Counted from the stretch's first letter, positions 44,047-62,236 are shown. The stretch is DNA of 64,000 nt from Candidatus Bathyarchaeia archaeon (GCA_050010515.1 JBEKKX010000002.1:1-64000), one strand, 5' to 3'. Notes: a model not told the origin generated them from the letters alone. Program-made: numbers and translations.

Positions 44047-44050
44047 GCGA

Positions 44051-45492: not shown

Positions 45493-46056
45493 ATGGAAGA
45501 TAAGCCTCAACAGCAATGCGTTATACCAATTCATAAACCGAGTCTTAAAGAATTAATCTTCTTTTTCTTATCTGGAATCCTAGTGAGTATTCCGTTTGCT
45601 TTGTTTTTTTCGAACTTTTACCCGCTTTTTCCCGGAGCTTTAGCGGTTATTTTAATAGCTCCTTTCGTAGAGGAGTTAGCGAAAGTTTTCCCATTATTCT
45701 ATAGGCATGGGGAAACCGAAAGGTCACTTGTAACTTTAGGTATTCTGATTGGGTTAGGTTTCGGTATTTCCGAATTCTTTTTGTATGTTTTCATTTATGA
45801 TGTACCTTGGATTGTTAGAATCCCAGGCGTTATTTTTCATGCTTCAAGCGCGGCTATAACTGCTTACGGTATCGCTAAGAAAAAACCTCTACCCTACTAC
45901 CTGACGTCTGTACTGCTTCATGCTACAAACAACTTTTTTGCTTTGGAAGCTGCGGTGAATTTTGGTGTATTAGCTGAATTGATAGTTTTAATCACTGTTT
46001 ATCTTCTTGCTTGGCACTTTTATCATCAGGCTTCAAACGAAAAAATGGTCGTTTAA
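45493..46056 (+). CDS. PrsW-family intramembrane metalloprotease
   Basis: APFVEELAK, GLGFGISE, LLHATNN. Confidence 0.85.
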   Translation: MEDKPQQQCVIPIHKPSLKELIFFFLSGILVSIPFALFFSNFYPLFPGALAVILIAPFVEELAKVFPLFYRHGETERSLVTLGILIGLGFGISEFFLYVFIYDVPWIVRIPGVIFHASSAAITAYGIAKKKPLPYYLTSVLLHATNNFFALEAAVNFGVLAELIVLITVYLLAWHFYHQASNEKMVV

Positions 46057-46580
46057 GAAACCCTGTCTGTTCTAGCTAAATCTCTAAGCCTGTTAACCCC
46101 ATCTATCTCATTAATGAATTCAGCGACGCTTTTAGGAACAAGATCCGTCCAGCTGTCATCTTGGAGCATTTTTTCTCTAATGATAGTTGACACGTATTGT
46201 TTCCTATCAAAGAATGGAATGTTTTTGACTTGATAACCTGCTTCCATGAAAAGCCTTCGTGTCAACGGCTCATTAGAATAACAAACATTAAACTTTGGAG
46301 TGTAACCTTCCAACGCGCTAACCCATAACATATGCAAGTGGACATCTGGAACTGGAACAATCCAAAGCTTAGAATAATCCACTTTAGCCTCTTGCAAAGC
46401 ACGGCGAATCATAACTAATCTTTCGCCCGCTGTAAACGGGTTATTGGAGTTATGGCTGTACTGAGCGCTACCAATGACTATGACGAGTTCATCAACTTCT
46501 TTTAAAACTGCCTTGATAGCGCCAAGGTGACCTAAATGGAAAGGCTGAAATCTGCCAACGTAAAGACCTCGATTAACCAA
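46053..46580 (-). CDS. nadM: Nicotinamide-nucleotide adenylyltransferase
   Basis: GRFQPFHLGH, NPFTAGER. Confidence 0.92.
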   Translation of the reverse strand: MVNRGLYVGRFQPFHLGHLGAIKAVLKEVDELVIVIGSAQYSHNSNNPFTAGERLVMIRRALQEAKVDYSKLWIVPVPDVHLHMLWVSALEGYTPKFNVCYSNEPLTRRLFMEAGYQVKNIPFFDRKQYVSTIIREKMLQDDSWTDLVPKSVAEFINEIDGVNRLRDLARTDRVS

Positions 46581-46645
46581 CGGTGCTTCCTCGCCTTTGA
46601 GGTTAAGCTCGCATGCTTTTATGATTTGTGTAAAAAAAATTCAGG

Positions 46646-47230
46646 TTAAGCCAAATTTCTTAGAACATATTCAACAGGGAAAACCTGAAGCTGACGCCCA
46701 TTGACTTCTAATTCTTTTGAAGTTGAGAAGCCTCTTTTCTCCCTGCCTAAGAGCTCAAGTTTAACTTTCAAGCCTCCACCATAACCTCCTAGCGTAAAAT
46801 CGGATTTAACAACTCTGTGGCAGGGAACGATTGGTGCAAAAGGATTAGCCGCCATAACGTTTCCCACAGCCCTTGGTCCACCACCTACCGCTTTGGCAAT
46901 TGAGCCGTAAGAAGCCACATAACCGAGTGGAATCTCGACAGTTGTTTTAAGCACTTTTTGTGTGTAAATTGGCAAACGAGTCAAGGCTAACGAGAAGCTT
47001 GCGTTAACATTTTGTCCCTCATAAATACTCTTCAAAGAAGCAAGAGTGTTTTTGGCGAAAGCCGAGGGCTCATGGAAAACCTGAAAAGATACGTTGAACG
47101 GTATATTTCCTAAAATGTTGCTTAATGTTAATTGTTGGCTTACACCAAAGGATGATGTTACAATCTGCTGTTGAGCATAGGCTACTCCGAACCAAACGCC
47201 GCCAATGTTTTGAGTATAAATTTCTATCAT
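46646..47230 (-). CDS. ogt: Methylated-DNA-protein-cysteine methyltransferase
   Basis: RAVG, VPCHRVV, GGYGGG. Confidence 0.92.
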   Translation of the reverse strand: MIEIYTQNIGGVWFGVAYAQQQIVTSSFGVSQQLTLSNILGNIPFNVSFQVFHEPSAFAKNTLASLKSIYEGQNVNASFSLALTRLPIYTQKVLKTTVEIPLGYVASYGSIAKAVGGGPRAVGNVMAANPFAPIVPCHRVVKSDFTLGGYGGGLKVKLELLGREKRGFSTSKELEVNGRQLQVFPVEYVLRNLA

Positions 47231-47566
47231 TTGCCTTCCTTTTACAACTTACATAGAGACAGAGTCCAAGAGGGGCTACTCCCTAATTAGCATAGTTAAA
47301 AAACATGCGGTATGTTAAAAGTTTCTGCGGTAAAAGCTTATTTTGCTTTGCATTCCATATAAACAGCCACTAACTTAACATTCTTAATTGCTTCTGGAAT
47401 TCAGTAAGCCTTTTGCAAGCACGGTTAGGTAACCGATTAGTTTTCCCCATTTATTCACTTTCCAGAGGTTAGACTCATCATATTTAGTCGCCTTGCCTGT
47501 CATAGAATGGTTATAAGTAAGCTTAATAGATTGTTTTGTGTATAACAACGGGAAAAGGCGAAAATT

Positions 47567-48253
47567 ATGGAAGGATACGGACCACAACTACCGCAAATAC
47601 CACAAATCCCACAAATGCCACAGATGCAAGATCCATCACAGCAAGCTCAGCAAGGCGGCTACGCTTGGATTCCAGGCGCCACTACAGTTGGCGTTGTCTT
47701 CTCAGACGGAGTACTCTTAGCTGCTGAAAAAAGAGTAACATACGGTTATTTCATTATGAGTAAAGGCGGAAAAAAAGTATTCAAAGTAACCGACCGAATC
47801 GGCGTTGCATGCGCAGGGCTTGTTGGAGACATGCAAATTCTCGCTAAAGAAATGGAAGCGCAAGCTAATCTTTTCAGCATGGACACTGGCAGAAAAATCA
47901 GCGTGCGCTCAGCAGCAAAACTTATGGCAAACGTCCTCTTCAACCGTCGATACGCACCATTAATTACTCAAACAATTGTCGGCGGTTTAGATGAAGAAGG
48001 CCCATCGCTTTTCGTGCTTGATGTTTTAGGCTCGCTTATACCTGATAAATACGCAGTAGTGGGTTCAGGCACAGAAATAGCCATAGGTGTTTTGGAAGAA
48101 GGCTACAAAGAAAGCATGAACGCAGAAGAAGCGAAAGAACTCGTGATGCGTTCTATAAAGTCAGCAATAAGCAGAGATTCAATGAGCGGCGACGGCATTG
48201 ACTTCCTTATTATAACTAAGGAAGGCGTAACTGAAGAAGCTGTAAAGTTTTAA
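47567..48253 (+). CDS. psmB: Proteasome beta subunit (Ala at the usual Thr1 position)
   Basis: GATTVG, AGLVGD.Q, GSG, RDSMSGDG; PQ-repeat N-terminal extension. Confidence 0.9.
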   Translation: MEGYGPQLPQIPQIPQMPQMQDPSQQAQQGGYAWIPGATTVGVVFSDGVLLAAEKRVTYGYFIMSKGGKKVFKVTDRIGVACAGLVGDMQILAKEMEAQANLFSMDTGRKISVRSAAKLMANVLFNRRYAPLITQTIVGGLDEEGPSLFVLDVLGSLIPDKYAVVGSGTEIAIGVLEEGYKESMNAEEAKELVMRSIKSAISRDSMSGDGIDFLIITKEGVTEEAVKF

Positions 48254-48966: not shown

Positions 48967-50106
48967 TCAATCTAGTAGGGTTTCGATGATTGTAACTGCC
49001 CTGTCTAACCCTTTAAACTTGTTAGAAAACTCGTTGAGCGCCAACATGTTTCTGTCGAAGGATTCTTGCTCCTTTTCCATTTTCGCAACCGCCTTTTGTA
49101 ATTGGCCTTTGTTTTTAACGGTTATTGAGCAGTTTAAGTCTTGAAGTTTTGCAGCGTTGCCCAACTGTTCAGGTTGTGTTGGAATGCAAATGCTTGGTTT
49201 TGAATATTTGATGGTTTCAAAGCATGTTGCATGTCCACCGCTAAAGATTACGAATTTAGCGTTCTTCATACATTCCTGCCTCTCTTCTGCAGACAGCCAT
49301 GTGTGAAGTTCGCAGTTTCCAATTTTAGTGGTGACTTTTTTGCCTGGTGTTCCTAAGCTAATGACGCATTTAGTTTTGAGTTTTTCAAGGACTGGAAGGA
49401 GGATTTTCATTATTTTTGCTCTTGTGCCCGGGGGACCGCTTATGGGTGCAAAAATGTGTTCTTGCGAGCCTTTAGCGTGTGTTGTGTCAACGAAGCTTCC
49501 TATGAATTCAACTTTCCCGTTTAATCCCATATTATCCAAGTTTCCAATACTATACTCAGAGATAGTGTACGGTGGGGGATTATCTGGGATTATTATTTTT
49601 GAGCACCGCTTTACATATCTTTCAATCAGTCGTTCGCCTGGATTAAGAAAAGCAGAGAAGCCGTAGCTTGGCCTTATCATGTTAGCGATGTAAACTGAGG
49701 GAAACCCCCATTTCTGCGCAAGCCTAAGCGCGTTTATGTCACCATCGGCGATAAGAATGTCAGGCGCAATATCACGGATGTTTTCTCTAAGGTCATAGTA
49801 ACGATGTATAGTTTCCATTGTACTGGAATTTTTTATTTCAAACCTGTTTTTTTCGATGTTAAACAGTGGAAGAGGAAATAAAACGTTGATTAGCGAGGCA
49901 GAAGTGATTATGCCATAGGAGTTCTCATACCAAGATACCGGTGTGCATTTGTAAACATTTCTAAATTCTTTCTGCAGCATCTGGTAAGCTTTGCCGCCTG
50001 AGAAAAAGAACAATTCATGACCGTTTTTCTCCAGTTTCTTCCCTAAGGGTATGATACGGGAAACATGGCCTAAGCCAAGCTCTGAGCAGCTTAACAGCAA
50101 TCGCAT
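48967..50106 (-). CDS. GT-B glycosyltransferase (GT28/MJ1255-like)
   Basis: GLGHVSR, SGGH.T..E, PEQLGNA. Confidence 0.85.
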   Translation of the reverse strand: MRLLLSCSELGLGHVSRIIPLGKKLEKNGHELFFFSGGKAYQMLQKEFRNVYKCTPVSWYENSYGIITSASLINVLFPLPLFNIEKNRFEIKNSSTMETIHRYYDLRENIRDIAPDILIADGDINALRLAQKWGFPSVYIANMIRPSYGFSAFLNPGERLIERYVKRCSKIIIPDNPPPYTISEYSIGNLDNMGLNGKVEFIGSFVDTTHAKGSQEHIFAPISGPPGTRAKIMKILLPVLEKLKTKCVISLGTPGKKVTTKIGNCELHTWLSAEERQECMKNAKFVIFSGGHATCFETIKYSKPSICIPTQPEQLGNAAKLQDLNCSITVKNKGQLQKAVAKMEKEQESFDRNMLALNEFSNKFKGLDRAVTIIETLLD

Positions 50107-50201
50107 ATGAACACAAGATACGTCGGCGATTTATTTTAACTATGCCGTATTCTGCTTGAAAAAAGCAAGCAATTTAAGGTTTAACCGCAACATTACAAGG
50201 T

Positions 50202-51056
50202 ATGTTTGTTCCACGAAAAATTCTGGAAGAGAAGCTAAGGCAAATACTCGCGGAAGACATCGGGCAAGGCGACGTAACAGCCCAAGCAATTATTCCTTCA
50301 AACTTAAAGGTAAAGGCAATAGTTATTGCTAAAGAAGAAGGCATAGCGGCTGGAATAGAAGAAACAATCATTCTCGCTGAATATTTAGGATTAAAAGTTA
50401 AAGCTAAAGTTGTTGACGGGGAAAAAATAAAGAATAAACAAGTATTAATGGAAATTTCAGGAGATGCCCAAACCATTCTCTCGGCTGAGAGAACCATGCT
50501 AAATCTTCTTTCACGAATGAGCGGCATCGCAACCGCCACACGAACGTTAACAACAAAACTTGAAAAAGCAGGTTCTAAAGCAAAAATCGCTGCGACACGT
50601 AAATCGGCGCCTGGATTGCTTTATTTTGATAAAAAAGCAGTAACCATAGGAAGCGGAGATCCACATAGGCTTCACTTGGATGATATGATTTTGATTAAAG
50701 ACAATCATCTAGTAATAGTCGGAAGCGTTGAGGATGCGGTTAAAAAAGCAAAAGCGAACGCTTCTTTTAGCAAAAAAATTGAGGTGGAAGTTACAAAAGC
50801 TGAGGATGCAATGCAGGCGGCTAAGGCAGGAGCAGATATTATAATGCTTGATAATTTTTCGCCTAAACAGGCTAAGGATGCAGGCGAAATGTTAAAGAAA
50901 GCCGGGTTTGCCAATGTGCTTTTGGAAGTAAGCGGTAAAATTACAGGCAAGAACCTTTTGGAGTACGCGGCAGCGCAAGTTGACATTATAAGCATAGGAG
51001 AGCTGACTCATAGCGTTAAAGCATTAGATATAAGTTTAGAGGTTGAGAGATATTAG
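50202..51056 (+). CDS. nadC: Quinolinate phosphoribosyltransferase
   Basis: EDIGQGDVT, ATRK, HRLHLDD..LIKDNH, IMLDN. Confidence 0.93.
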   Translation: MFVPRKILEEKLRQILAEDIGQGDVTAQAIIPSNLKVKAIVIAKEEGIAAGIEETIILAEYLGLKVKAKVVDGEKIKNKQVLMEISGDAQTILSAERTMLNLLSRMSGIATATRTLTTKLEKAGSKAKIAATRKSAPGLLYFDKKAVTIGSGDPHRLHLDDMILIKDNHLVIVGSVEDAVKKAKANASFSKKIEVEVTKAEDAMQAAKAGADIIMLDNFSPKQAKDAGEMLKKAGFANVLLEVSGKITGKNLLEYAAAQVDIISIGELTHSVKALDISLEVERY

Positions 51057-51587
51057 CCATACTTCTATTATTGCGCTTACAATAAGTATGGCAGCGCAGA
51101 TTCCTATTAGTATTGCAGTGTTTTTTAGTTCAAGCCATCGCCGTTGCATTAGTCTGCGGGTCAGCCAAATGCCTTCTGCTATTGCAGTTGAATAGGCAGT
51201 GAATTCTAGCCAGAACACGGGTGTTAACACTAAGCTTAGCAGTTCTATCCATACGGGATAGCCTTGTACGGAAGCTATAGCCCCAAGTGCAAGGCCAGTA
51301 TTACCCAGTATTATAAATCCTATTATAGGCCCAATTAAAGGAACAAACATTACCAAACAGATTGAGAAATTATTGATGAAAACATATTCTGTTAAGCTGC
51401 CATTGGACTTATGCGTATTAAGAGTCGCGTTTAAACCGTTACTTATTGACGTTGCGTCTTGATGGCTAAGAGGTATATAGCTTCCGATAACCGTGACTAT
51501 GAATGCAAGTATGAAAATTATTATGATTGAGTAGATTCTTTTGCGTTTTGATGAAGCATTCGTCCAAAAGGACAAATCAAGTTTCAT
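51036..51587 (-). CDS. SpoIIM-like membrane protein
   Basis: VFINNF, WLEF, SAIIEV; multiple TM segments. Confidence 0.8.
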   Translation of the reverse strand: MKLDLSFWTNASSKRKRIYSIIIIFILAFIVTVIGSYIPLSHQDATSISNGLNATLNTHKSNGSLTEYVFINNFSICLVMFVPLIGPIIGFIILGNTGLALGAIASVQGYPVWIELLSLVLTPVFWLEFTAYSTAIAEGIWLTRRLMQRRWLELKNTAILIGICAAILIVSAIIEVWLISLNL

Positions 51588-51598
51588 TGTATGCCTTC

Positions 51599-52291
51599 TT
51601 AGTTTGTGAGTTTAATTTTTAAGGTGCGGAATCCTCGTGCACAAGGGTTTAGCGTTTCTAATAATTTAACCTTTGTTAAAACTCTTTCAACATCAACGGC
51701 GTAGCCGCGTACATCATGCTCAGCCGCTATAAGCGAGTGAAGGTACACGCGGTCTTCTTGCACTATTGGTTGACACATTAAAGGTAAACCTAGCAAAACA
51801 GGCTCTTTTTGGTCTACCGCTTTTTTGCAAGCAAACAGAATTGCTTCTGCACCAGCCGTTAACTCTGCGATACGGACAGGAACACTTTCTTTACCAATAG
51901 CCAACACGTCCACATCATGGATCCGTTTGATTTCGCCAGCAATTTTCCGTAGTCTAGGCAAAATCTTCAAAATGTTTTGTCGCCCTGTTCTAGATGTGCG
52001 CAAGTTTGAAAGCTCAACTGGTGATAGCTCCTCAATGGAGACTCCGCCAAGCGACAGATCCAAATGCACAACATCAGCCTTCATTTTATCAAGCAAGCTT
52101 CTGCAAAGCTCAGCCTCATGCACTATCACTTCAAAGCCGCTTTCAACTTCTCTAAAAATTGGTTCAGCCAACCTGAAAGATGGCTCCCTGTACGGTGAAT
52201 TAACCAACACTGAAACAGATGCGACAAGGTACAGTGGCTTAAACTGCGGGTCTAATATTGCTGCTGCAGAATCCGCCGATATAACTCTCAA
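51599..52291 (-). CDS. DUF4152-like RNase H-fold protein
   Basis: ISADS.AAIL, DVVHLD, AIGKESVPVRIAEL. Confidence 0.75.
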   Translation of the reverse strand: MRVISADSAAAILDPQFKPLYLVASVSVLVNSPYREPSFRLAEPIFREVESGFEVIVHEAELCRSLLDKMKADVVHLDLSLGGVSIEELSPVELSNLRTSRTGRQNILKILPRLRKIAGEIKRIHDVDVLAIGKESVPVRIAELTAGAEAILFACKKAVDQKEPVLLGLPLMCQPIVQEDRVYLHSLIAAEHDVRGYAVDVERVLTKVKLLETLNPCARGFRTLKIKLTN

Positions 52292-52330
52292 GTCTTACAC
52301 CTAACAATAATAGTAGTTAAGCAGAAGAAA

Positions 52331-52972
52331 TTAGGTTTCCTGTTCACAGTTGCCCTTCGATTTTAAGCCTGTGGCTAAAAGGTACATTTCAGAGCTTTTA
52401 GCTCGGCTTGCCTGAGGCTTCACTATCTTAACTGTTTCAAAAAGATTCTTTGCTGTTTGGATAAAATCGTTGAGCAAGTTACCTTCAAAAACCTTAACAA
52501 AAAAGTTCCCTTTGGGCTTAAGTAGGCATTGAGCTATTTCTAATGCTTTAGTTGCTAAGTCAATTTGTCTTGCGTGGTCAACTTCCCAAACGCCAGTGAT
52601 GTTTGGTGCAGCATCAGAAATTACTGCGTCCGCTTCGCGAGGCAGAAACGAGCGTATTTCCTCGACTATGCCTGGCTCAGTGAAGTCTGCAATTATTGTT
52701 CGAATGTATTCCTGCGTGAAGGGTTCGATTGGTTTTAAATCAACGCCCAGAACAAAACCGTTTTTTCCAGTCATTTTTCTTGCTGCTTGAATCCATCCTC
52801 CTGGCGCAGCGCCTAAATCCACTACTACGTCGTCTCTTTGTATGAAACCATATTTCGCGTTGGCTTGAACTAGCTTGTATGTGGCTCTGGAGCGGTAGTT
52901 TTCTTCTTTGGCTTTTTTGTAGTAGTATTCCCGTTTTCTATCTTGGATCCAAGCTTTCGGCAAGTGAATCAT
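52331..52972 (-). CDS. rlmE: 23S rRNA methyltransferase RlmE/FtsJ
   Basis: YRSRATYKL, DLGAAPGGW, SDAAP, ASRAKSSEMY. Confidence 0.93.
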   Translation of the reverse strand: MIHLPKAWIQDRKREYYYKKAKEENYRSRATYKLVQANAKYGFIQRDDVVVDLGAAPGGWIQAARKMTGKNGFVLGVDLKPIEPFTQEYIRTIIADFTEPGIVEEIRSFLPREADAVISDAAPNITGVWEVDHARQIDLATKALEIAQCLLKPKGNFFVKVFEGNLLNDFIQTAKNLFETVKIVKPQASRAKSSEMYLLATGLKSKGNCEQET

Positions 52973-53366
52973 CCTCTTGTGTGCTTGGCGCGCTTGGACC
53001 CGCAGTAGTTGTGGCTTCTTTTCCTAAGCCGAGTATCCAATCTGTAAGTTTTGGGCAGCTTTTAGGTGAAAGTGCAGTTGTTGGGTCACACCTTTCATTG
53101 TCTGGGCAGAGTAAGCATGGGCAGTCAACGATGGTTTCTATCGATGCTGGAAGCCTTTTTGGGTAAAGCCTATATGTCCATCTGCCTTCTTGCAGTTCTT
53201 TTTCTCTGCGGATTAGGCCTTTTTCTTCTAGTTTAATGGAGACACGTGAGCCTTCTCGGCTGCTTGCGCCTAGTTCACGCCATAAATCGGATTGAAGCAC
53301 ACCTTGATAGCCTGTGTTTACTACATAATGGAGTGCTTTCTGTTCAAGGTCATTACGTTTAGGCAT
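52938..53366 (-). CDS. TFEbeta / RPC34-like transcription factor (wHTH plus 4-Cys Fe-S domain)
   Basis: GVLQSDLWREL..KLEEKGLIRRE..TYRL; PCLLCP...C...P..CPKLTDW. Confidence 0.8.
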   Translation of the reverse strand: MPKRNDLEQKALHYVVNTGYQGVLQSDLWRELGASSREGSRVSIKLEEKGLIRREKELQEGRWTYRLYPKRLPASIETIVDCPCLLCPDNERCDPTTALSPKSCPKLTDWILGLGKEATTTAGPSAPSTQEDDSLAESLDPR

Positions 53367-53412
53367 CTGATATCAATCCAAATAATGCAATTAGAATATA
53401 AGCGTTGAATCC

Positions 53413-53451
53413 AGATAAAAATATGTTTCCGTAGCTGTAGCTGTAGATAAT
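53413..53451. repeat. attL-like site AGATAA-AAATAT-GTTTCCGTAGCTGTAGCTGTAGATAAT
   Basis: Inner 27 bp are an inverted repeat (20/27) of 58522-58548. Confidence 0.7.
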
Positions 53452-53506
53452 ACATCAATTGACCCAGAATTCATAAAGCCTTTAACTTTTGAGGGGGGAA
53501 TAAAGG

Positions 53507-54742
53507 ATGAGTGACTTTACGGAAGCAAATGAAGAGTGGATTCTAAAATTCGAATCTGGAAAAAATTGGATTCCTAAACTGCCAAGCCGACATACAAAAC
53601 GCATTTTCATAAGAGCCTTACAGAAATACTGCCAAGCTGTCAAACAAAACCCAGATGAGCTAATCAACCTTAAAATCGAAGGCTTGAAAGCTGTAGCAAC
53701 AGAAAAGGAATTCGGAGCGGAACGACAGCTTGAAACCTACCTTAGAAACTCAGGTATGACTGACAGCGTTAAAGCTGAATCCAAGAATGCCATTATCAGC
53801 TTTTATAAACATAATTGGAGAAACCTTAACCCCAACGTTGCAAGCGATATAGAACCCCCAGAAGCTAAGAAGAGAACCCCGACAATAGAGGATATACAAG
53901 CCCTCGATGCTAACATGACTACTTCACGGGATAAAGCGTTAGTTTGGTTTTTCCCCTCAACTGCCGTAAGAATTGAAACTTTAACTAAACTGACTAAAAG
54001 AGACCTAAAGCCGACAGGTGACAGCGAAGTTCCCTATTACATGGAAATTGAAAGCGCGAGATTAAAAGGCTCTGGAATTGGAAAATATAAAGGCATAAAG
54101 CAAATAACTTTCGTTCATAAGTTGGCATGGCAGAGATTAGAAGATTATTTTGCAGAAGCTAAACGCAAAGGCTACAACTTAACCGATAGTTCGCCGTTGT
54201 TTATTGCATACAAAGGGCACTTCAGCAAAGAAGAAAAGAAATTAGCAGTTAAACCTAAAAGAATCCGAGTCATGACTCAGGGAGCAATCAATCAAGTGTA
54301 TGATAATGGGTCACTCTCCGCATGGAAAGATTTGGAACAGAAACGCTTTTCGCCTCATGATTTCAGAGATTTCCTTGAATCATCCCTTGAAAGTGCGGGA
54401 ATAGACAAAAATCTCAGAGACCCTATGATGGCGCACAAGGTCAGGGGAGTAGATAAGCACTATTCAAGCCATGAAATTTTGGAAATGAAAGATAAATACA
54501 AAACCGCATTGCCTTATCTGTTACCTCAATCTGTGGAGAAACTCAAAGCTGAAGCTGACAAAGTGAAAGAGGAAAATGAGAAAAGAATTAAATTTCTTGA
54601 ACAGCGACTTCTTGATAACGGTTTAAGTATCAATAAGATGCTCACAGACTTTAACCAGTTGAAAGCAACTTTTGAGGAACTGCAAAAACTGAAAGAGGAA
54701 GAGGAACGCAACAAACCAGAAAAGAAAAAGGTATGGGATTGA
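53507..54742 (+). CDS. Tyrosine recombinase/integrase (element B)
   Basis: RDKALV..STAVRIE (R), RLKG (K), PHDFR (HxxR), MAH...KHY (H, Y). Confidence 0.92.
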   Translation: MSDFTEANEEWILKFESGKNWIPKLPSRHTKRIFIRALQKYCQAVKQNPDELINLKIEGLKAVATEKEFGAERQLETYLRNSGMTDSVKAESKNAIISFYKHNWRNLNPNVASDIEPPEAKKRTPTIEDIQALDANMTTSRDKALVWFFPSTAVRIETLTKLTKRDLKPTGDSEVPYYMEIESARLKGSGIGKYKGIKQITFVHKLAWQRLEDYFAEAKRKGYNLTDSSPLFIAYKGHFSKEEKKLAVKPKRIRVMTQGAINQVYDNGSLSAWKDLEQKRFSPHDFRDFLESSLESAGIDKNLRDPMMAHKVRGVDKHYSSHEILEMKDKYKTALPYLLPQSVEKLKAEADKVKEENEKRIKFLEQRLLDNGLSINKMLTDFNQLKATFEELQKLKEEEERNKPEKKKVWD

Positions 54743-54750
54743 CTAAACCC

Positions 54751-54780
54751 CTTTTTCCTCTTTTCTTTCTCTTCTTTTCT
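54751..54780 (+). terminator. Pyrimidine/T-rich archaeal terminator after integrase B
   Basis: CTTTTTCCTCTTTTCTTTCTCTTCTTTTCT. Confidence 0.55.
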
Positions 54781-55218
54781 ATGTTTTTCGAATTAAACAG
54801 TAGCTTAAAAAGCCATAAACCGACAAAAAGTCAAAAACGTACAAGGGTAGTAGGGCATAATCCCAGCCTAAAATTTTTAATGGAAAATTATTTAAACGAC
54901 TTATAGCAATGCAACAATCATGATAAGCATTATTGAAAATATGCTTGTAACATTGAGAGATAGAGAACTTGAACTTGCAACCCAAGAATATGCTAAACGA
55001 TGCGATAAATTCACAGTTGAAACAAACGGCTTACTTCATCGTCATATTTCAGGCGTTTGCATTGTCCCCCATGTAGAAGTATCATCGAATAAAATTGCAT
55101 TACAAGGCAAATACCTCTAAATATGCAGTCATTTATGGGTTAGTTTTATCTTTTCCATATGGCAAATCAGGTTCTTAATTCTTAATCGAAGCTATACAGA
55201 TTTAAGATTGAGGGGTGA

Positions 55219-55470
55219 AGACCATTTAGAGGAATAGATGTAATAAATATTAACTCAGTTAACTTAAAATGCAGAGAATGTGGAAAAAACGCGAAATGGA
55301 TAGTTATAGACCAAAGGTACGGCGTAGACCTCAAAGAAGTCGCCGCCGCCGCAACAAAAGGAGTAATAGCCCCCCCGTACAACCAATACTTTTACCCTCT
55401 TTGTGAAGAACATTTTAACTTCTTAAAAGAAAGTAAACCTTCCATGCATATGGATTATTATTATATTTAG
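55219..55470 (+). CDS. CxxC...CxxH Zn-finger ORF lacking a canonical start (missed by ORF track)
   Basis: LKCRECGKNAKW...YPLCEEHF; possible ATA start 55243 after GAGGA. Confidence 0.4.
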   Translation, partial: RPFRGIDVININSVNLKCRECGKNAKWIVIDQRYGVDLKEVAAAATKGVIAPPYNQYFYPLCEEHFNFLKESKPSMHMDYYYI

Positions 55471-55537
55471 GCTCAAATCCTAATTAAACAACTGATTAAT
55501 TAAGCCAAATTGCCAAAAAAAAGAATGTTGTTGGTTG

Positions 55538-56065
55538 CTATTGAACTACAATAGTCACCAAATTACTGCTATACGTATTTCCATTGGCATCGGTAATAGT
55601 GCAATAGCCCTGATAAACTCCATTTCCAGCATTTTCATATAGGTCATTCCCATCTTCAAATTGATAGGTGACTGTATTCGTATTAGGAAAATTAGGGTAG
55701 GAAGGGTTGAGTTGGCTTGGTGACATGTTATAGACGTTTTCTTGTCCATAACTGTAAGTGCCTGTATGGAATTCTATGCTCTGAACAGGAGAAACATCTG
55801 ATACTTGCAGAGTAAATTGAGCAGTTAAGGCTATTCCATTTCCTTGCGGTATTGTCACCGTTTGAGTGTCAGGTGTTAACGTAACAGTTGGAGAACTATT
55901 AGCGTTTGAATTTCCAGAATTGCCTACGTTATTTGCATTATTTGAATTATGTGATGACCTATCTAAAATTAGCACTCCTACCAATGAAACAGCTAATATT
56001 ACTATTATCACGACTGCCAAAATCATATATTTATTAATTCTTTTAGTTGATAATGGTTGAGCCAA
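55538..56065 (-). CDS. Membrane-anchored extracellular beta-rich protein
   Basis: N-terminal TM, N/S-rich linker, Ig-like C-terminus (YCTITDANG..SNLVTIVV). Confidence 0.75.
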   Translation of the reverse strand: MAQPLSTKRINKYMILAVVIIVILAVSLVGVLILDRSSHNSNNANNVGNSGNSNANSSPTVTLTPDTQTVTIPQGNGIALTAQFTLQVSDVSPVQSIEFHTGTYSYGQENVYNMSPSQLNPSYPNFPNTNTVTYQFEDGNDLYENAGNGVYQGYCTITDANGNTYSSNLVTIVVQ

Positions 56066-56175
56066 TTGTATAACCTCTTACCGTATGCACTATGCCTTTC
56101 TTTCAGCTTATAAGTTTTGGTTCTGGTAACTTCACGTCATACGGTTTTTTCTGTTAACTGCCGTCTGAGACAGCT

Positions 56176-56505
56176 TCAAACGGTAGGATTTTTAGGTCTG
56201 ATGTCTGCGCCACATTTAGGACAGAAACTATTATCAGCGTCAATCCGACTGTTGCATTTTGGACATATAGCTAAGACTTTTTGGGTAGATTGGGATTGGG
56301 GATAAACTATGGTGGGCGCTTGAGCTTGAGGTGGATAATTGTATATGACTTGTTTTGGATGAGGTGATGTAACCAAACCAACTATAAGCATGATAAATCC
56401 AATAAATCCGCAAAGTGCGGCAAATGGAATTAATATTATTGTTAGGAATAGAAAAATGCCAACAAACATTAGAAAAAGTCCACCAATGATTAGCCCAGCT
56501 CTCAA
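56176..56505 (-). CDS. Two-TM protein with C-terminal Zn ribbon
   Basis: Hydrophobic hairpin; CPKCNSRIDADNSFCPKCG. Confidence 0.8.
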   Translation of the reverse strand: MRAGLIIGGLFLMFVGIFLFLTIILIPFAALCGFIGFIMLIVGLVTSPHPKQVIYNYPPQAQAPTIVYPQSQSTQKVLAICPKCNSRIDADNSFCPKCGADIRPKNPTV

Positions 56506-56587
56506 ACTGATTCCCTCAGTTTGCTTTATGTGGACATTTTAAATATAAAACTTGTCATGGATATTACTTCTGATTAAAAAAGAGGGG

Positions 56588-57307
56588 TTAAGGGTTCGGT
56601 TGCTGTTGCTGTGGTTCCGTCTTAGCTTTAATAGGTATCACGTAATGCCCTTCTCGTCTTTCATTAACAACGTATCTACCATTAAGACCCCTCATTTTCT
56701 GACCAATTTCGGCAAATTTGGAAGGGTCAAGCATTCGGTTTGGTTTAGCAATAATCAACTTAGCCTTACTGTCTATTGAAATGTCGAGCAGATTCTTAAT
56801 TTCTTCCAACTGTATGAGCGTAGGCTCGGCTAACTGTTTAAGATTTGCCTCTTCTTCTTTCGCTTGTTTTTCAGCTTCCACTTTCGCTTTTTCAGTTTCA
56901 ACCTTCTCTTCTAACGGTTTGTTTTGAGTGTTATAGGCTCGGATTCTCACCACTTCACACGGGTCTTTATTTGGAAAAGCTGTAGCCATTTCTTCCGCTT
57001 CTTCAGATGGTCTGCCGAGAAGAACGTATTGTTTTACGAGTTCATTATGAACATCCTTCTTTTTCTGAGCTTTAAGCGCGTCTTGTTCTGCTTTCGTCAT
57101 AGACCATTTTTTATATAACCTATCAAAAATTGCTTGTCCGTCCTTGCCTTGTTTATTCCAGAAAGCTATAAATTCGTCTTTGTGTTTCTCCATGAACTCT
57201 TTAACTAAAAAAGTAGCACTACCATAACCGCTGGGGTCAATTATTGAATCAAAACCTTCCCCTAACTCAGTTTCGAGAAATGTCGAAATACTGTGATTAT
57301 TAGCCAT
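56588..57307 (-). CDS. Element B protein with C-terminal domain homologous to host ORF 29806..30204
   Basis: IIAKPNRMLDPSKFAEIGQKMRGLNGRYV...GHYVIP. Confidence 0.75.
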   Translation of the reverse strand: MANNHSISTFLETELGEGFDSIIDPSGYGSATFLVKEFMEKHKDEFIAFWNKQGKDGQAIFDRLYKKWSMTKAEQDALKAQKKKDVHNELVKQYVLLGRPSEEAEEMATAFPNKDPCEVVRIRAYNTQNKPLEEKVETEKAKVEAEKQAKEEEANLKQLAEPTLIQLEEIKNLLDISIDSKAKLIIAKPNRMLDPSKFAEIGQKMRGLNGRYVVNERREGHYVIPIKAKTEPQQQQPNP

Positions 57308-57411
57308 GATTTTTTCACTTCCATTTTACTTATCTGAATACATACGATACACGACCCACATATAAACTTTTGGCAAGAAACAACATCTTCATTTAAACTT
57401 TTCCAAGCCAA

Positions 57412-57497
57412 TTAATCAACTGATTAAATGAAATAGACAGCAAAATGTCAACGCCTCATCCATGCCAAAAAACACAGAAATTTAACCAACTGATTAA
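57412..57497. repeat. Pair of 16-bp palindromes TTAATCAACTGATTAA and TTAACCAACTGATTAA
   Basis: Same motif as at 64-79, 157-172 and 55484-55499. Confidence 0.85.
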
Positions 57498-57509
57498 AAA
57501 AAGCCCAAA

Positions 57510-57557
57510 AACGTCCGAACATGTGAACGTCCGAGCATATGAACGTTTTTTCATATG
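57510..57557 (+). repeat. Three tandem 16-bp iteron-like repeats
   Basis: AACGTCCGAACATGTG / AACGTCCGAGCATATG / AACGTTTTTTCATATG. Confidence 0.7.
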
Positions 57558-58263
57558 AAACACCCGACCAAAACCTAACCCCCCACTACCCACCCCCCGC
57601 ACTAAGCGGGGCAAACCCCAAAACAACACCCTCTCTTCTTTTAGAACAGCCGAGAGTAAGATAGTAGATTCAACTGAGTAGATTAGGTTAGAATAGAATA
57701 GCTATGGGTAGGGAAGGGGTAAAAGGGGAAACCAATAGGCATACCCGCGCTAAGTCGTCCGACACACACACACCGCCCCCGCGCAACACACACATAACAA
57801 AAAATGATAAACAAATGCAATCATTAACCGAAAGTGTTAATCATCGAGCACCCAGAACGAACCAACAAAACAAGCACATAGAACCCAGAAAAAGCCATGC
57901 CCATGTTTACCTTAATTCAGGAAAAAAAGATACTGCCTTGCGTTTTCATGAATCGAACTCCCCGCCTATCTGTACCCCTGAACAACAGCAACTCCTGAGC
58001 GTCCGCCCTCGCTGGAAAAATACCCATTTTTTAAAATTTCTGGGTTCGATTTTTATGGATGGGATTCCCCATTTTATTTGGCTTGGAAGAATTCCTTGCC
58101 CAAAATCATTTTTTGAGCAAAATCAAGGGTATGTAGCTTAAAGGCTAAATTGGGCTTGTTTTGCCAATTGAACACGTGTTCTACAGTTATTTGGCATTTC
58201 AAGCCCAGAATAGCCTTTAAATATGGGTTTTGCATTGCTATAAACATAAACGAAGTTGGAAAA

Positions 58264-58491
58264 ATGACAGCAACCCCAGAAAAAAACCAAATAATAAAGC
58301 AACCGAAACTTAGCTTAGCACAACGCTTTAAGAAATGGCTAAATGGGGAATATTATAAGGCACCAACAAAAGAAGAAATACAAGAAGCTGAAGAGTTGGA
58401 GCAAGAAGCTAAAGAAGACGAAATAGAGGATTCGCAAGGGGACGGATTAATGAGCGAAGGGGATATTATGTTCCCTGAGGAGATTGAATAA
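58264..58491 (+). CDS. 75-aa protein with acidic C-terminus (element B right end)
   Basis: ATG 58264 downstream of TATA-like CTTTAAATA (~58215). Confidence 0.6.
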   Translation: MTATPEKNQIIKQPKLSLAQRFKKWLNGEYYKAPTKEEIQEAEELEQEAKEDEIEDSQGDGLMSEGDIMFPEEIE

Positions 58492-58521
58492 ATGAGCAAC
58501 TTAGAAATAGCCAAAAAGCGA

Positions 58522-58560
58522 ATTATCTACAGTTGCAGAAGTGGATACAAATATGTATCC
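58522..58560. repeat. attR-like site ATTATCTACAGTTGCAGAAGTGGATAC-AAATAT-GTATCC
   Basis: GGATAC/GTATCC perfect inverted repeat around the 6-bp core. Confidence 0.7.
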
Positions 58561-58579
58561 CTTAAAAAACTTGGAATCC

Positions 58580-59614
58580 ATGAAAAACATGCAGAGCAAG
58601 CAGCGAAAAGATGAAAATTACTGTTTAGGCATAGAATCTTCAGCAGACGATTTTGGCGTTGGAATAGCCGCCTTCAACGGAGAAATACTCGCCAACAAAT
58701 CCGACAGTTACATACCAGCAGAAGGCGGAATCCACCCTAGAGAAGCAGCAAGGCACCACTCTGAAGTTGCTGATAAAGTGCTAAGCGACGCCTTAACGGC
58801 GGCGGGCGTGAAGCCAAGTGACTTGTCGATTATTGCGTTTTCTCAGGGTCCAGGTTTAGGACCATGCTTGCGCACAGGTGCTACTGTTGCCAGAGCTTTG
58901 GCGTCATACCTTGAGGTTCCGCTAGTGGGTGTTAACCATTCTGTGGCGCATATTGAGATTGGAAAACTAAAAACTGGCGTTGTTGACCCAGTGACCCTTT
59001 ACGCTTCAGGCGGCAACACCATGGTGACAGCTTTTGAGGCTGGACGCTACAGAGTTTTCGGTGAAACCTTAGATATTGCCCTTGGGAACTGTTTGGACGT
59101 TTTCGCTCGGGAAGCGGGTCTTAAGCACCGGAAGGGTTTGCCGCTTGGAGCTGCCGTGGAGCGGTTGGCAGCTAATGGGAAAAGGCTGGTTTCTTTGCCG
59201 TATGTTGTGAAGGGCATGGACTTATCCCTTAGCGGCTTATTGACTGCGGCGACAGCTCAGCTGCATAGGGGCGATTGCTGCTTGGAGGATTTGTGTTATA
59301 GTCTTCAGGAGAACGCTTTTTCGATGGTTACTGAAGTTACTGAGCGCGCGTTGGCGCATACGGAGAAGAAGGAGGTTCTGTTAACAGGAGGGGTAGCAGC
59401 CAATAAACGGTTGCAATCCATGCTTGCTGTTATCGCGGAGGAGCATGACGCACGGTTCAGTGTGGTTCCGCTTGAGTTTGCAACTGACAACGGCGCCATG
59501 ATTGCTTGGACAGGCGTTTTAGCTTACAGGCACGGGGTAGTTACGCCTTTGGATGAGAGTTATGTGAAGCTGCGTTGGCGGGTGGATAAGGTGGATGTTC
59601 CATGGATACAGTAG
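58580..59614 (+). CDS. kae1: KEOPS t6A synthase Kae1
   Basis: LGIES, GGIHPREAA, GPGLGPCL, VNHSVAH, SGG, DNGAMIA; start ATG 58580 or 58589. Confidence 0.95.
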   Translation: MKNMQSKQRKDENYCLGIESSADDFGVGIAAFNGEILANKSDSYIPAEGGIHPREAARHHSEVADKVLSDALTAAGVKPSDLSIIAFSQGPGLGPCLRTGATVARALASYLEVPLVGVNHSVAHIEIGKLKTGVVDPVTLYASGGNTMVTAFEAGRYRVFGETLDIALGNCLDVFAREAGLKHRKGLPLGAAVERLAANGKRLVSLPYVVKGMDLSLSGLLTAATAQLHRGDCCLEDLCYSLQENAFSMVTEVTERALAHTEKKEVLLTGGVAANKRLQSMLAVIAEEHDARFSVVPLEFATDNGAMIAWTGVLAYRHGVVTPLDESYVKLRWRVDKVDVPWIQ

Positions 59615-60261
59615 TCGAGCAAACGCTGTTTAAGAAGGGTGCGGAAGCCAGCTTGTACCTTGCCGATTGGCATAGTCGAAAAGTAGTCATTAAGGTGCGA
59701 ATTCCAAAAAGGTATCGTCCGGAGGCGTTGGATGAGCAGATTCGAAGTTACCGCACAGTGCATGAGCCGCAGTTGATGCATGAAGCGAAAGCAGCTGGGG
59801 TGCCGACTCCGTTGATATACATGGTTAACGTTGCTGAAGCTTCGATTACGATGGAGTATGTGGAAGGGCAGCAGATTAAGCAGCTACTGAACAAGGTTCC
59901 ACAGGGTAAGCGGCGGGAATTATGCATGGCAATCGGCGAGTTAATCGGTAAACTTCACAGTCGTGGCTTAATCCACGGCGACCTAACAACATCAAACATG
60001 ATTCTGAGCCCTGAGGGCAAAATCTTTTTTGTTGATTTCGGTTTAGGCGAAAAAAATAGCGAGCTGGAGGCGGAGGGTGTGGATTTGCATTTGATGAAGC
60101 GGGCGCTGCAGAGTACCCATTACCAGTTCTGGGAAGAATGCTTCAAAAACGTGCTGTCTGGTTACTCGTCGGTTCTGGGTTCGGAAGCAGCGGAAAAGGT
60201 TTATGAGAAAATAAAGGAGATAGAGAGGCGTGGCCGCTATGTCGAGGAAAGAAAACAATAA
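59602..60261 (+). CDS. bud32: KEOPS kinase Bud32
   Basis: GAEA, IHGDLTTSNMI, VDFGL, ERRGRY. Confidence 0.95.
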   Translation: MDTVVEQTLFKKGAEASLYLADWHSRKVVIKVRIPKRYRPEALDEQIRSYRTVHEPQLMHEAKAAGVPTPLIYMVNVAEASITMEYVEGQQIKQLLNKVPQGKRRELCMAIGELIGKLHSRGLIHGDLTTSNMILSPEGKIFFVDFGLGEKNSELEAEGVDLHLMKRALQSTHYQFWEECFKNVLSGYSSVLGSEAAEKVYEKIKEIERRGRYVEERKQ

Positions 60262-60853
60262 TCAAACCTGTAGTCTCAATGGCAAGGTTGTCTTTTTTGC
60301 CACAGGCAACATTAACAAGTTCAACGAAGCCAGAAGCATCCTAAGCAGTTACGGGTTTGCAGTCGCAATGCTGCGCGTGAAGGGAGACGAGATGCAAAGC
60401 GACAGCCTGAAAGAAATCGCAAAAACAAGCGCCGTAAACGCGTTTAAACGAAGCCACTTGCCCATTTTCGTGGAGGACGCAGGCTTATTTATTGATGCCC
60501 TAAGCGGTTTTCCCGGTCCATATGCTGCTTACGTATACAAAACAATTCACAACAGCGGCATACTACGGTTGATGGAAAACGTGGCGGATAGGCATGCGAG
60601 ATTCCGGTCAGTTATATCTTACTGTGACGAAACCCTTTGTGAGCCAGAGTGTTTTGACGGCGAATCCAATGGCGAAATAACCTTAACCGAACGCAGACAA
60701 CAGGGAAAATCAGCTTTTGGCTTTGACCCTATTTTTCAGCCTGTTGGAAGCTGTAAAACATTTGCGGAAATGACTATTGAAGAGAAGAACGGTTTCTCGC
60801 ATAGAGCAATTGCCATACGCAAATTTGCTGAATGGTACAAAACAAAGCCTTGA
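60239..60853 (+). CDS. rdgB: HAM1/RdgB non-canonical purine NTP pyrophosphatase
   Basis: FATGNINK, VEDAGL, GFPGPY, FGFDPIF, SHR. Confidence 0.92.
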   Translation: MSRKENNNQTCSLNGKVVFFATGNINKFNEARSILSSYGFAVAMLRVKGDEMQSDSLKEIAKTSAVNAFKRSHLPIFVEDAGLFIDALSGFPGPYAAYVYKTIHNSGILRLMENVADRHARFRSVISYCDETLCEPECFDGESNGEITLTERRQQGKSAFGFDPIFQPVGSCKTFAEMTIEEKNGFSHRAIAIRKFAEWYKTKP

Positions 60854-60969
60854 ATAATTTATCAAATAAATACCTTCAAAACGCAACGGCAAAACGGAAT
60901 CTGTCAGCATCATTACATAAAATGTTATATCTGCAAAGCAACTGAATGAAGAACACAGGGGAACCAGGA

Positions 60970-61337
60970 ATGAGTAAACAGAAAGCGGCAAACGGAAACC
61001 GGGTAAGTGTACTTGCGACAATATTTGCTGTTGTATTAATTGGATTGGCAAGTCTGGTTTACACTTATTACACACCATTGATAATTCGAAGGATGCCGAA
61101 ATAGCTGACCAGAGCAATCAAATAGCCAGTTTAAATGCCACAATTTTGGGCCTCAACAGTCAGGTAGCTGCTTTAAAGAGCCAAATAAGTGATTTGCAGG
61201 AAAAATACACAGCGAACCTTGTTACTGCACTTGGAGCTAATGAAATCTCAAGCTCTATAGCTCTGTTCTTTGTCATCTCTACATATCTGGCACAGTTACC
61301 GATGCTGGTAAACAGTAGCTATGTGAGCCAGGGCTAA
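60970..61337 (+). pseudogene. Frameshifted membrane-anchored coiled-coil surface protein remnant
   Basis: ATG 60970 with TM segment; frame change near 61075 into QIASLNATILGLNSQVAALKSQI. Confidence 0.5.
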
Positions 61338-61452
61338 GACATCCAAGAATATTACAGATACGTGATTATAAGGAACCAGAAGATTGCAATGGGAAAGAAT
61401 TTCTACCTGAATGTCAATTATAAATATAATCTAATTTAGTTTACACAATATA

Positions 61453-61686
61453 ATGGAAGAAGTTCCTACTAGAATGTCAAATATAAAGGAAGAACACAGG
61501 GATAATTTACTTGGTGGACTTGCAATTATTCTAATTGGAATACTTCTTAGTTCATCAGCTATATGGGGATTAGTTGATAACGTCTATTCAATGAATAGTG
61601 GACTTGCACCAATAATGTTTATTATTTTAGGAGTTGGATCAATTATTTGGGGTGTATTAATATTCATTCATAAACCTGAGGCGTAA
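61453..61686 (+). CDS. Small two-TM membrane protein
   Basis: Two hydrophobic segments. Confidence 0.6.
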   Translation: MEEVPTRMSNIKEEHRDNLLGGLAIILIGILLSSSAIWGLVDNVYSMNSGLAPIMFIILGVGSIIWGVLIFIHKPEA

Positions 61687-61742
61687 ACAATTGTTGTTTG
61701 GTCACGAAAAAACAAGGGCTACCTTCACAGGAGACATAGACG

Positions 61743-62236
61743 ATGAATTCGGTAATTAGGTTTATAAAGGCAATATATTGTTTAGTCAAAGCCTTGCTAG
61801 GTTTACCATACGTGTCTACGGGGATATTGGTACTGTTAGCCTTGACTTGGTTTAGCCAACCCCCTGATTTAATATTAACAGCTGCGTTGTTGTTTGCTTT
61901 TCCAGTTTCTTGGTTATGTCGGCTTCAATGTGAGCGAGAACAGAGATTTTATAAGGGGTTGTTTATGGATAGCAAAAGCTACAGACAAGCAACAAGTTCA
62001 ACAAAAGTGTCGTCAGGTACAGCGAAAAGCTGTCCTGTCTGCAACAAAACTATCTCTTCAGAAAACAATTTCTGTCCTTATTAGGCAACTGACCTCAGAG
62101 GGCAAAGGTTGCAACAGCAGCCCAATCCCGCAGAAACAGGGATGACGATATGTCCAAAATGCAACAACAGAGTAGCTTACAATGCGAGTTTTGTGCAAAT
62201 TGTGAAGCAGACTTCAGACCGAAAACACCAATAGTA
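61743..62236 (+). pseudogene. Degenerate membrane plus double Zn-ribbon gene
   Basis: CPVC..FCPY-stop, then CPKCNNRV and, after a frameshift, CANCEADFRPKTP; similar to C-terminus of 56176..56505. Confidence 0.55.

Follow-up and report, generated by a model that had tools for sequence, protein, structure and literature searches.

A small, probably mobile element with its own Xer/Cre-like integrase between the divergent TFE-beta-like and kae1 genes of a Bathyarchaeia archaeon

The Sulfolobus integrative plasmids pSSVi and pXZ1 are small (5-7 kb), some such plasmids being satellites of viruses, and they combine tRNA targets with a large primase-type Rep. With integrases of the SSV type, the attachment site attP lies within int and the gene is split upon integration (review PMC8371274). 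The same 2021 review, as far as it is drawn on here, describes the characterised archaeal integrases as independent of directionality factors, the SNJ2 integrase as aided by two small proteins and archaea as lacking FtsK. The integrase of SNJ2 (haloarchaeal pleolipoviruses) uses a short core of 14 bp, and its efficiency depends on small accessory proteins encoded alongside (Wang et al. 2018, PMC5861418). Among the precisely mapped integrated elements of Thaumarchaeota, 15 of 68 are intergenic and 14 of 68 lie at the 3' end of genes; cryptic integrated elements (CIEs) start at 2.6 kb and have short attachment (att) sites, the smallest, NitUzo-E2 (2.6 kb), having four genes (Krupovic et al. 2019, main text; PMC6563490). 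In the portions of the Bathyarchaeia virome paper used here, integrases are mentioned only in two large viruses (PMC10541130). A term search of the 2021 review of archaeal tyrosine recombinases returned neither 'TATA' nor 'Bathyarchaeota' (PMC8371274), and our literature search, which covered articles outside their supplementary tables, found no small Bathyarchaeia integrative elements or promoter-core att sites. Here we analyse a discrete 5,148-bp insertion at positions 53413-58560 of a 64,000-nucleotide stretch of DNA (the window) from a Candidatus Bathyarchaeia archaeon (GCA_050010515.1, JBEKKX010000002.1:1-64000; genome G000 below).

We consider it very probable that this insertion is a mobile element that was integrated by conservative site-specific recombination, carried out by its own Xer/Cre-like integrase (Int), into a conserved A/T-rich motif. 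On its left stands the gene of a 142-aa protein (52938..53366, minus strand) with a winged helix and a Cys-rich C-terminus, which matches the winged helix-turn-helix (wHTH) family B-block_TFIIIC of Pfam (E 2.9e-5) and, through residues 78-111, the C-terminus of human RPC6 (E 0.003). TFE-beta, which is homologous to RPC39/RPC6, consists of a winged helix and a C-terminal Fe-S-cluster domain; the protein is called TFE-beta-like here. On the right stands kae1 (58580..59614, plus strand; NCBIfam arch_KAE1, E 3e-146), followed by bud32 (59602-60261; NCBIfam Bud32, E 1e-73). No tRNA is present in window positions 50000-62000.

The empty form of the site was found in relatives. kae1 was searched in 40 of them and 29 loci other than our own were taken, in 27 of which the TFE-beta-like gene divergently adjoins kae1; the two exceptions are G004, where an element occupies the site, and one cut contig. 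The start-to-start gap between the two genes, as given by tblastn, was 71-180 nt in 26 loci and 841 nt in one. Once the element is removed, the spacer in the window measures 46+18+19 = 83 nt, compared with 84-85 nt in the two closest empty relatives, and the intergenic DNA of one relative (G016, locus L006) is exactly the two flanks of the window joined across the core. The runs holding the stretch are all peat or wetland metagenomes in the form of Logan contigs, 4 of the 22 runs being compared, at 90% likeness. A single contig of run X19 (depth 44, side 35) runs from 53418 straight on to 58549, 8 letters of the joint fitting either side, and loose contig ends at 53430 and 58544/58545 (X5, X11, X19) continue into the opposite flank. 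Flank depth was far above element depth in X11 (~200-330 versus 1.7-11), X5 (~21-62 versus 9.5-13) and X19. An earlier note, made by a model from the sequence alone, had placed a complete and precisely bounded element in this divergent intergenic region rather than at a tRNA, and had predicted an empty site and adjacent genes in relatives; the joined flanks, the contig joint, the end repeats described below and the gene order all bear it out, and the two findings on which it would have given the claim up (other breakpoints in empty relatives, and genes that are not adjacent) were not encountered.

Run X19 also contains a contig (depth 34, side 65), slightly different from the window, in which 53553 is joined to 58514, so that the first ~47 nt of int are followed by the DNA beginning 8 nt before the right inverted repeat. 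This single observation, at 90% likeness, may represent a ~190-bp deletion remnant in a related strain that kept both att sites and both repeats.

The ends of the insertion have the organization of recombined att sites. The attL core is the 18-mer AGATAA-AAATAT-GTTTCC (53413..53430), made up of a host-derived left arm (AGATAA), the shared AAATAT(GT) and an element-derived right arm, and the attR core is GGATAC-AAATAT-GTATCC (58543..58560), with an element-derived arm (GGATAC), the same shared stretch and a host arm. The attR 18-mer is a perfect 6-6-6 palindrome-spacer-palindrome, and the element ends can therefore be read as direct as well as inverted repeats. As direct repeats, the two 18-mers are identical at 15 of 18 positions, the longest perfect common run being AAATATGT (8 nt). 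The longest inverted repeat among 258 pairs in 53000-59000 extends over 38 nt (53414-53451 versus 58522-58559, 74%) and includes a perfect 11-mer, CTGTAGATAAT at 53441-53451 and ATTATCTACAG at 58522-58532. Direct reading of the positions and our own count agreed with the figures given earlier for the 18-mers (15/18) and for the inverted inner arms (20/27). When 100-nt end windows were subjected to 300 mononucleotide shuffles, the 28 matches out of 38 of the inverted repeat were never reached (0/300), the exact 11-mer was reached once and the 15/18 direct repeat twice. On the left, the inner arm (53431..53451) starts with a 10-nt linker, followed by the 11-nt repeat; on the right (58522..58542) the order is reversed. 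A conceptual join of the two ends yields an attP formed by an 11-nt repeat, a 10-nt linker, a 6-nt arm, AAATAT, a 6-nt arm, a 10-nt linker and an 11-nt repeat, i.e. a 60-bp palindrome with outer repeats 38 nt apart, which differs from attB at only 3 of 18 positions. A role of the 6-bp core as recombination spacer is plausible, the sequence itself placing the exchange within the common 8 nt. The GC content of the element is 38.2%, that of the genome 42.6%.

The int gene (53507..54742, plus strand) encodes a 411-aa protein with a core-binding domain, a catalytic domain and a long C-terminal helix (residues 343-401). The frame is uninterrupted and fits entirely within the element, starting 77 nt from the attL core, in keeping with the earlier claim of an intact gene that is not split in the manner of SSV1. 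The open frame had no Pfam match at E<=0.01 and no sequence match in the PDB. Its AlphaFold model, built on 36 relatives, has a predicted local distance difference test (pLDDT) score of 84.4 and gave 55 PDB matches at E<=0.001 with Foldseek; all listed rows are tyrosine recombinases, archaeal XerA (4a8e) coming first (E 5.5e-8), followed by IntI, XerH, Cre and Tn1549 Int. The profile of the Int family also matches XerA 4a8e (E 2.7e-4), with boxes I and II aligned. The model shows two domains, no arm-binding domain and a helix of ~60 residues appended at the C-terminus. All six catalytic residues (R155, K187, H284, R287, H310 and Y319) are there; five are conserved in 36/36 sequences of the family alignment and H284 in 32/36. 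PF00589 matches 34 of the 36 aligned relatives at E<=1 (best 1e-12), and most database relatives carry a precomputed PF00589 match. The 411-aa protein is a divergent but complete tyrosine recombinase of the Xer/Cre-like kind. Outside cellular genomes, a search for its relatives returned 24 pattern matches in IMG/VR, none of them confirmed, and nothing in GenBank phages or PLSDB plasmids (tblastn, E<=0.01).

Two known types of integrase were rejected. A XerA chromosome-dimer resolvase was discarded on account of the score with NCBIfam recomb_XerA_Arch (28.8 versus a 220-bit cut-off), two paralogues in the genome and the absence of the gene from this position in 27 of 29 related loci; an SSV-type (type I, 'suicidal') integrase was discarded on account of an int gene that is not split and of an attP that is not inside the gene. 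The int gene is whole after integration, which reviews give as a trait of the pNOB8 type; this refers to the state of the gene only, not to membership of a clade.

The distribution of the family indicated that the site is used repeatedly. Int has a 51% identical paralogue on contig C5 of the same genome and matches at E<=1e-50 in 20 of 100 other genomes of the genus, many more having fragments, broken copies or N-terminal stubs. Integrases of the window clade adjoin the TFE-beta-like gene in G004, G098, G093, G076 and G062 and in the metagenome loci L065, L066 and L067, all with the same attL junction (over the attL stretch compared, L065 does not differ from the G093 locus). The elements whose right end was recovered, which excludes G093 and G062, measure 5.06 kb (G004), 5.15 kb (window), ~6.5 kb (L067), ~9.2 kb (G098) and ~10.1 kb (G076); the kae1 site is used across species by five differently loaded elements of 5-10 kb. 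At the DNA level, the occupants resemble each other only in int and in the last ~350 bp, the middle being unrelated. G004 shares 97% identity with the window in the TFE-beta-like protein and 97% in kae1, but only 72% in Int, while G093 shares 83% in the TFE-beta-like protein and 79% in Int; in a quick tree, the window Int groups with G098 and G093, not with G004. Since similarity in Int does not go along with similarity of the hosts, the pattern favours repeated acquisition or replacement at a single site over vertical descent of one insertion. The outer repeats differ from one element to another, yet they are inverted within each of them (window, G004, L067, C5, L092; imperfectly in G076), as protein-binding sites required on both arms would be expected to show.

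Other members of the family have other sites with the same geometry. An automatic search for inverted-repeat ends gave convincing results at three sites alone (the kae1 site, site 2 and site 3), and an 11-nt repeat found around the integrase in L118, L119 and L050 was not counted, having no accompanying direct repeat. The C5 element (~43185-47868, 4.7 kb) is bordered on one side by the stop codon of a 502-aa gene and on the other by a conserved CTTAATAAAT motif that precedes the gene of a 426-aa membrane protein, and its boundaries were confirmed by matching empty sites in relatives. Its ends show a 14/14 direct repeat and perfect 11-nt inverted repeats 38 nt apart, with the same spacing as in the window; in the centre, 6-nt arms match at 5/6 positions around a 6-nt spacer, a sequence unrelated to the window attP with the same geometry. 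The C5 and window elements share 83% identity over the last ~290 nt of int and the adjoining downstream DNA, compared with 51% overall for the integrases, which suggests recombination between the two elements. The same attB is used by an integrase-only form of 1.46 kb (attL, int, attR), found in L092 (metagenome) and L047 (G084:C5), which share matching att and flanking sequence and are thus not independent. G106, G095 and three metagenome loci share a third att class, which has the palindromic core ATATTTAAATATA. Each att class corresponds to one Int clade in a quick maximum-likelihood tree of 52 integrases, 38 rows of which have no assigned site: 7/7 for the kae1 site (Shimodaira-Hasegawa-like approximate likelihood ratio test, SH-aLRT, 100), 2/2 for site 2 (98) and 5/5 for site 3 (94). 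Apart from one attP-like site on contig C51, the genome contains no other attB- or attP-like 18-mer at <=2 mismatches. Int clades track att classes and no second site is present, and this argues for site-specific integration rather than transposition.

One member of the third att class (L177, G106:C34) lies ~195 nt downstream of sua5, which, like kae1, belongs to the N6-threonylcarbamoyladenosine (t6A) pathway; this may be a coincidence.

The mechanism that we propose is as follows. Int would recombine the palindromic attP with an A/T-rich motif, unique and highly conserved, that lies in the promoter region between the divergent TFE-beta-like and kae1 genes, strand exchange taking place within the common AAATATGT. 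Each junction would then receive a near-identical copy of the motif, attL with the host left arm and attR with the host right arm. Two genes would make up the backbone, int on the left and the gene of a 75-aa acidic-tail protein on the right, and the ~3.4 kb separating them would be exchangeable ORFan cargo. We infer a circular intermediate, together with the exact strand-exchange positions and the sites bound by Int; the element may still be active and would have some mode of replication or transfer.

The target motif is highly conserved. The exact 16-mer ATAAAAATATGTATCC, which is unique in the genome, was found in 16 of 21 loci of the genus and its core in all 21; other families of the same order retain it in recognisable form. 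The att core lies 46 nt from the ATG of the TFE-beta-like gene and 19 nt from the first ATG of kae1. Because it is conserved and A/T-rich, the motif suggests a TATA box/transcription factor B recognition element (TATA/BRE), possibly common to both genes. Two observations do not fit well with this assignment. The motif stands at -35..-26 with respect to kae1 and at -59..-50 with respect to the TFE-beta-like gene, whereas the genome-wide A/T-rich peak, derived from crude start calls, is at ~-44..-37. Furthermore, at the level of the order, its distance is approximately constant to the TFE-beta-like gene and varies to kae1. A scan for sigma-70-type promoters, which is unsuited to archaea, gave no signal (14 found, 13.7 expected). 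Since attP differs from attB at just 3 of 18 positions, both junctions keep the motif nearly unchanged, and these near-identical copies argue for little disruption of the expression of the TFE-beta-like and kae1 genes. At attL, the host-side copy faces into the element and precedes int by ~80 nt, and in all three att classes the core is located roughly 75-95 nt upstream of int. All three classes have A/T-rich, quasi-palindromic cores (AAATAT in ATAAAAATAT, ACTTTA inside CTTTAATAAAT, and ATATTTAAATATA).

Besides int, the only conserved gene of the element is the one at its right end, and in the cargo between them only a zinc ribbon is recognisable. Following int, the open reading frame (ORF) ORF66 (54920..55120, plus strand) had no match in Pfam, PHROGs or NCBIfam, and an open frame seen in translation at 55264..55472 (plus strand) has a CxxC...C..H pattern and no ATG, GTG or TTG start, so that its coding status is uncertain. 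Three genes are on the minus strand. ORF175 (55538..56065) encodes an N-terminal hydrophobic segment, an Asn/Ser-rich linker and a C-terminal domain, with no family match at E<=0.001; ORF109 (56176..56505) encodes membrane segments and a C-terminal zinc ribbon (Pfam Zn_Ribbon_1, E 7.7e-8); and ORF239 (56588..57307) encodes a helical N-domain, a long helix and a small alpha/beta C-domain, and has a homologue with 41% identity in the C5 element. Although the ORF239 model is of high quality (pLDDT 93), no informative fold match was obtained (Foldseek best E 0.31; VIA best Z 6.3, with a generic alpha/beta subdomain; nothing usable in the ESM atlas), and an exhaustive HMMER search returned only 40 unnamed cluster representatives. 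The fold searches with ORF239, like those of Pfam, PHROGs and NCBIfam, revealed no Rep, capsid or conjugation gene, as the earlier note had reported.

A 16-nt palindromic motif, TTAAnCAACTGATTAA, is present at 55484..55499 and again at 57412-57427 and 57482-57497, the last two copies being 105-190 nt upstream of ORF239. The window contains 7 strand-matches of this palindrome, compared with 0.18 expected, and the genome 12 hits at <=1 mismatch, 10 of which fall at the starts of contigs C2 and C3, in the focal element and in the C5 element. Downstream of these copies, a non-coding stretch (57498..58263) contains C-rich and G-rich tracts (57540-57830) that can pair over a long range on the plus strand (RNA fold z -2.5, compared with +0.5 for the minus strand); positions 57574-57806 are 71% identical to the C5 element. 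Considered as a candidate RNA or origin, 57320-57830 reached the gathering score of no Rfam family (best IMES-5, 24.3 versus 96.1 bits, and CncR1, 20.9 versus 76 bits), and beyond the C5 element its homologues were limited to one of 100 genomes of the genus, plus two further tiny matches.

The last gene before attR, ORF75 (58264..58491, plus strand; ORF77-like), encodes what we call the tail module: a basic helix (..AQRFKKWLNG..), an acidic linker and a C-terminal ..MFPEEIE. Homologues occupy the same position in G004, C5 and G106, and only ten were found in databases. In the 1.46-kb L092/L047 form, the module is fused to the C-terminus of Int, which gives a 436-aa integrase. With 79% identity, it also makes up the last 62 residues of a 378-aa protein with a zinc ribbon and a P-loop ATPase domain, at the attR end of the 8.5-kb G095 element, and a third bearer, in the same genome as the window, is a 375-aa P-loop ATPase (29973-31100) of an element on contig C15 that has a different integrase-like gene. 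Being found free, on Int and on ATPases, the tail module is portable and extends beyond this integrase family. Its docking partner could be the recombinase, a partner of the ATPase or a host factor.

A bolder extension, which we regard as rather unlikely, is that the whole integrase family may target promoter-core (TATA-like) motifs, with the tail module (free, on Int or on a HerA/FtsK-like ATPase) as a portable docking peptide that would regulate the Xer-like recombinase much as FtsK-gamma does XerD; no accessory or directionality factor of this kind is known so far from archaea. If it were true, integration would duplicate the motif, both divergent host genes would keep a promoter core, int would be placed ~80 nt downstream of the host-side copy, and expression of the element would be coupled to an essential host promoter.

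Other mobile regions were noted in this genome and in its relatives. Positions 1 to ~9500 of the window form another ORFan mobile region, running off the start of the contig, with its own divergent integrase (7070-8221, minus strand; PF00589 E 0.0023, below cut-off), an InsA-type zinc-ribbon protein (5505-6107), two copies of the TTAAnCAACTGATTAA palindrome (at 64 and 157) and two genes (3028-3756 and 6107-6745) with homologues in the cargo module that the G098 and G095 elements carry. Contig C15 contains, at ~21700-31600, a ~10-kb element beside tRNA-Met (21711-21786), with a 285-aa integrase-like ORF, a block of small ORFs, the 375-aa ATPase and a palindrome copy at 31343. The loci L168 (G098) and L174 (G095) share a syntenic 8-gene module with a ribbon-helix-helix protein, a DnaB/HerA-like ATPase and a weak HK97-gp10-like match (E 2e-4 to 6e-4), which could be a small virus-like or satellite-like module.

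We considered the possibility that the element is a helper-dependent satellite, integrated by its own Int and relying for its spread or replication on a virus or larger element in the same host. Such dependence would bear on how the element is transferred and does not conflict with site-specific integration by Int; we hold it to be possible, though doubtful. It would account for the lack of any recognisable replication, capsid or conjugation gene, for the sharing of the TTAAnCAACTGATTAA palindrome with the C5 element and the starts of contigs C2 and C3, for the tail module that also ends the 375-aa (C15) and 378-aa (G095) ATPases, and for the 8-gene module with weak HK97-gp10-like matches carried by the G098 and G095 relatives. 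Yet, none of the candidate helpers has a firmly identified capsid or packaging gene, the Pfam matches of the 8-gene module are weak or below cut-off, and the sharing of the motif could equally reflect a host regulator. Links through spacers of clustered regularly interspaced short palindromic repeats (CRISPR) are also lacking: the genome has a single array, of three repeats, whose 2 spacers match nothing in its elements or in the fetched loci.

Several observations weigh against an element that was integrated, and can still be moved, by its own Int. The score of Int with PF00589 is 15.1 bits, below the gathering cut-off of 27.1 (E 0.019), and that with recomb_XerA_Arch, given above, is even further below its own; these sub-threshold scores reflect a divergent sequence and do not contradict the fold or the residues. 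The tree used for the att classes is a quick version. Several family integrases in other genomes are broken: those of G093, G022, G087 and G091 contain in-frame stops, G062 has a fragment, and N-terminal stubs are numerous, indicating that decay is common in the family. The empty-site contigs, collected at 90% likeness, may stem from sister strains that were never occupied; they prove the breakpoint, not excision. Finally, no circle junction was found in the contigs of 4 of 22 runs (assemblies drop rare variants), and a terminal overlap was seen in 0 of 79 metagenome loci, which says little in assembled contigs.

Matches limited to the first ~50-80 residues of Int were encountered in, e.g., G003, G014, G016, G044, G046, G058, G068, G105 and G115. 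Such stubs may be scars of element replacement or decay.

Some of these points would suit an immobile relic, i.e. an old, fixed insertion that is inherited and whose int is open but inactive: the circle junction missing from assemblies, the many decayed copies elsewhere in the family, and an attL and attR that differ at 3 of 18 positions. The latter differences fall outside the common 8 nt, as expected for attB versus attP, and Int is full length with its six catalytic residues. Furthermore, the same element-derived arm is found in G098, G093, G076, L066 and L067, the two closest empty relatives (kae1 93-94% identical) have no element while G004 (97%) holds a different one, and the occupied form is the minority in three of four runs. 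A relic therefore appears decidedly improbable.

The reading put forward in the earlier note, a tyrosine-recombinase transposon with a short, loosely specified target, finds some appeal in the terminal inverted repeats, the short common core and the existence of a 1.46-kb integrase-only form, but it is scarcely tenable, as a single breakpoint recurs in G000, five other genomes and three metagenome contigs, Int clades map onto att classes with 7/7 tree rows of the window clade sharing one nucleotide position, what look like terminal inverted repeats are a palindromic attP divided in two, the genome has no second copy or alternative site, the integrase-only form sits in the same attB as its 4.7-kb relative, and the repeat is imperfect as expected of an attB/attP hybrid, unlike a target-site duplication.

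Site-specific integration by Int thus remains the preferred explanation, and the element, in which searches of Pfam, PHROGs and NCBIfam found no viral hallmark, conjugation or transposase genes, is of the cryptic integrated element kind. It represents an undescribed family that is widespread in the genus, and is otherwise an ordinary cryptic integrated element with an unusual target, a putative promoter core. What goes beyond the routine is the reused promoter-core hot spot, the conserved 60-bp attP geometry, the integrase-only mini form and the portable tail module. The conserved promoter motif of essential genes can be an integration hot spot in the same way as tRNA genes. The family also offers a precisely defined set of attB, attP and Int, including a natural 1.46-kb integrase-only form, for a lineage in which the literature searched describes no small integrative elements, and such an Int/att module is the usual start for integration vectors where genetic tools are absent.

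Compared with known systems, the element shares small size and integration with the SSV-type elements, pSSVi and pXZ1, but its int is intact, its target is not a tRNA and it has no recognisable Rep. With SNJ2, it shares an archaeal integrase, a short core and an int gene that is whole on integration; SNJ2 differs, in so far as a comparison with its published description allows (PMC5861418), by its tRNA-Met target and by the coiled-coil and wHTH accessory proteins of its int operon, which are unrelated to the acidic-tail module. Like the CIEs of Thaumarchaeota, it bears an integrase and is without viral, conjugative or clear replication genes (PMC6563490). In contrast to these CIEs, it belongs to another host lineage and another integrase clade, and it shows one conserved divergent-promoter motif reused across species, a 60-bp palindromic attP and a tail gene at attR; this comparison was made with PMC6563490 apart from its Table S2, promoter-core targets being possible among the intergenic cases. 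As in XerA and in Cre, XerH and IntI, the integrase has a two-domain fold without an arm-binding domain and a core site consisting of inverted arms around a 6-nt spacer. Unlike XerA, its gene is multi-copy, polymorphic for presence or absence and flanked by cargo, and, unlike the XerA/Cre type in general, it has an extra C-terminal helix of ~60 residues and outer 11-nt repeats placed one helical turn outside the core.

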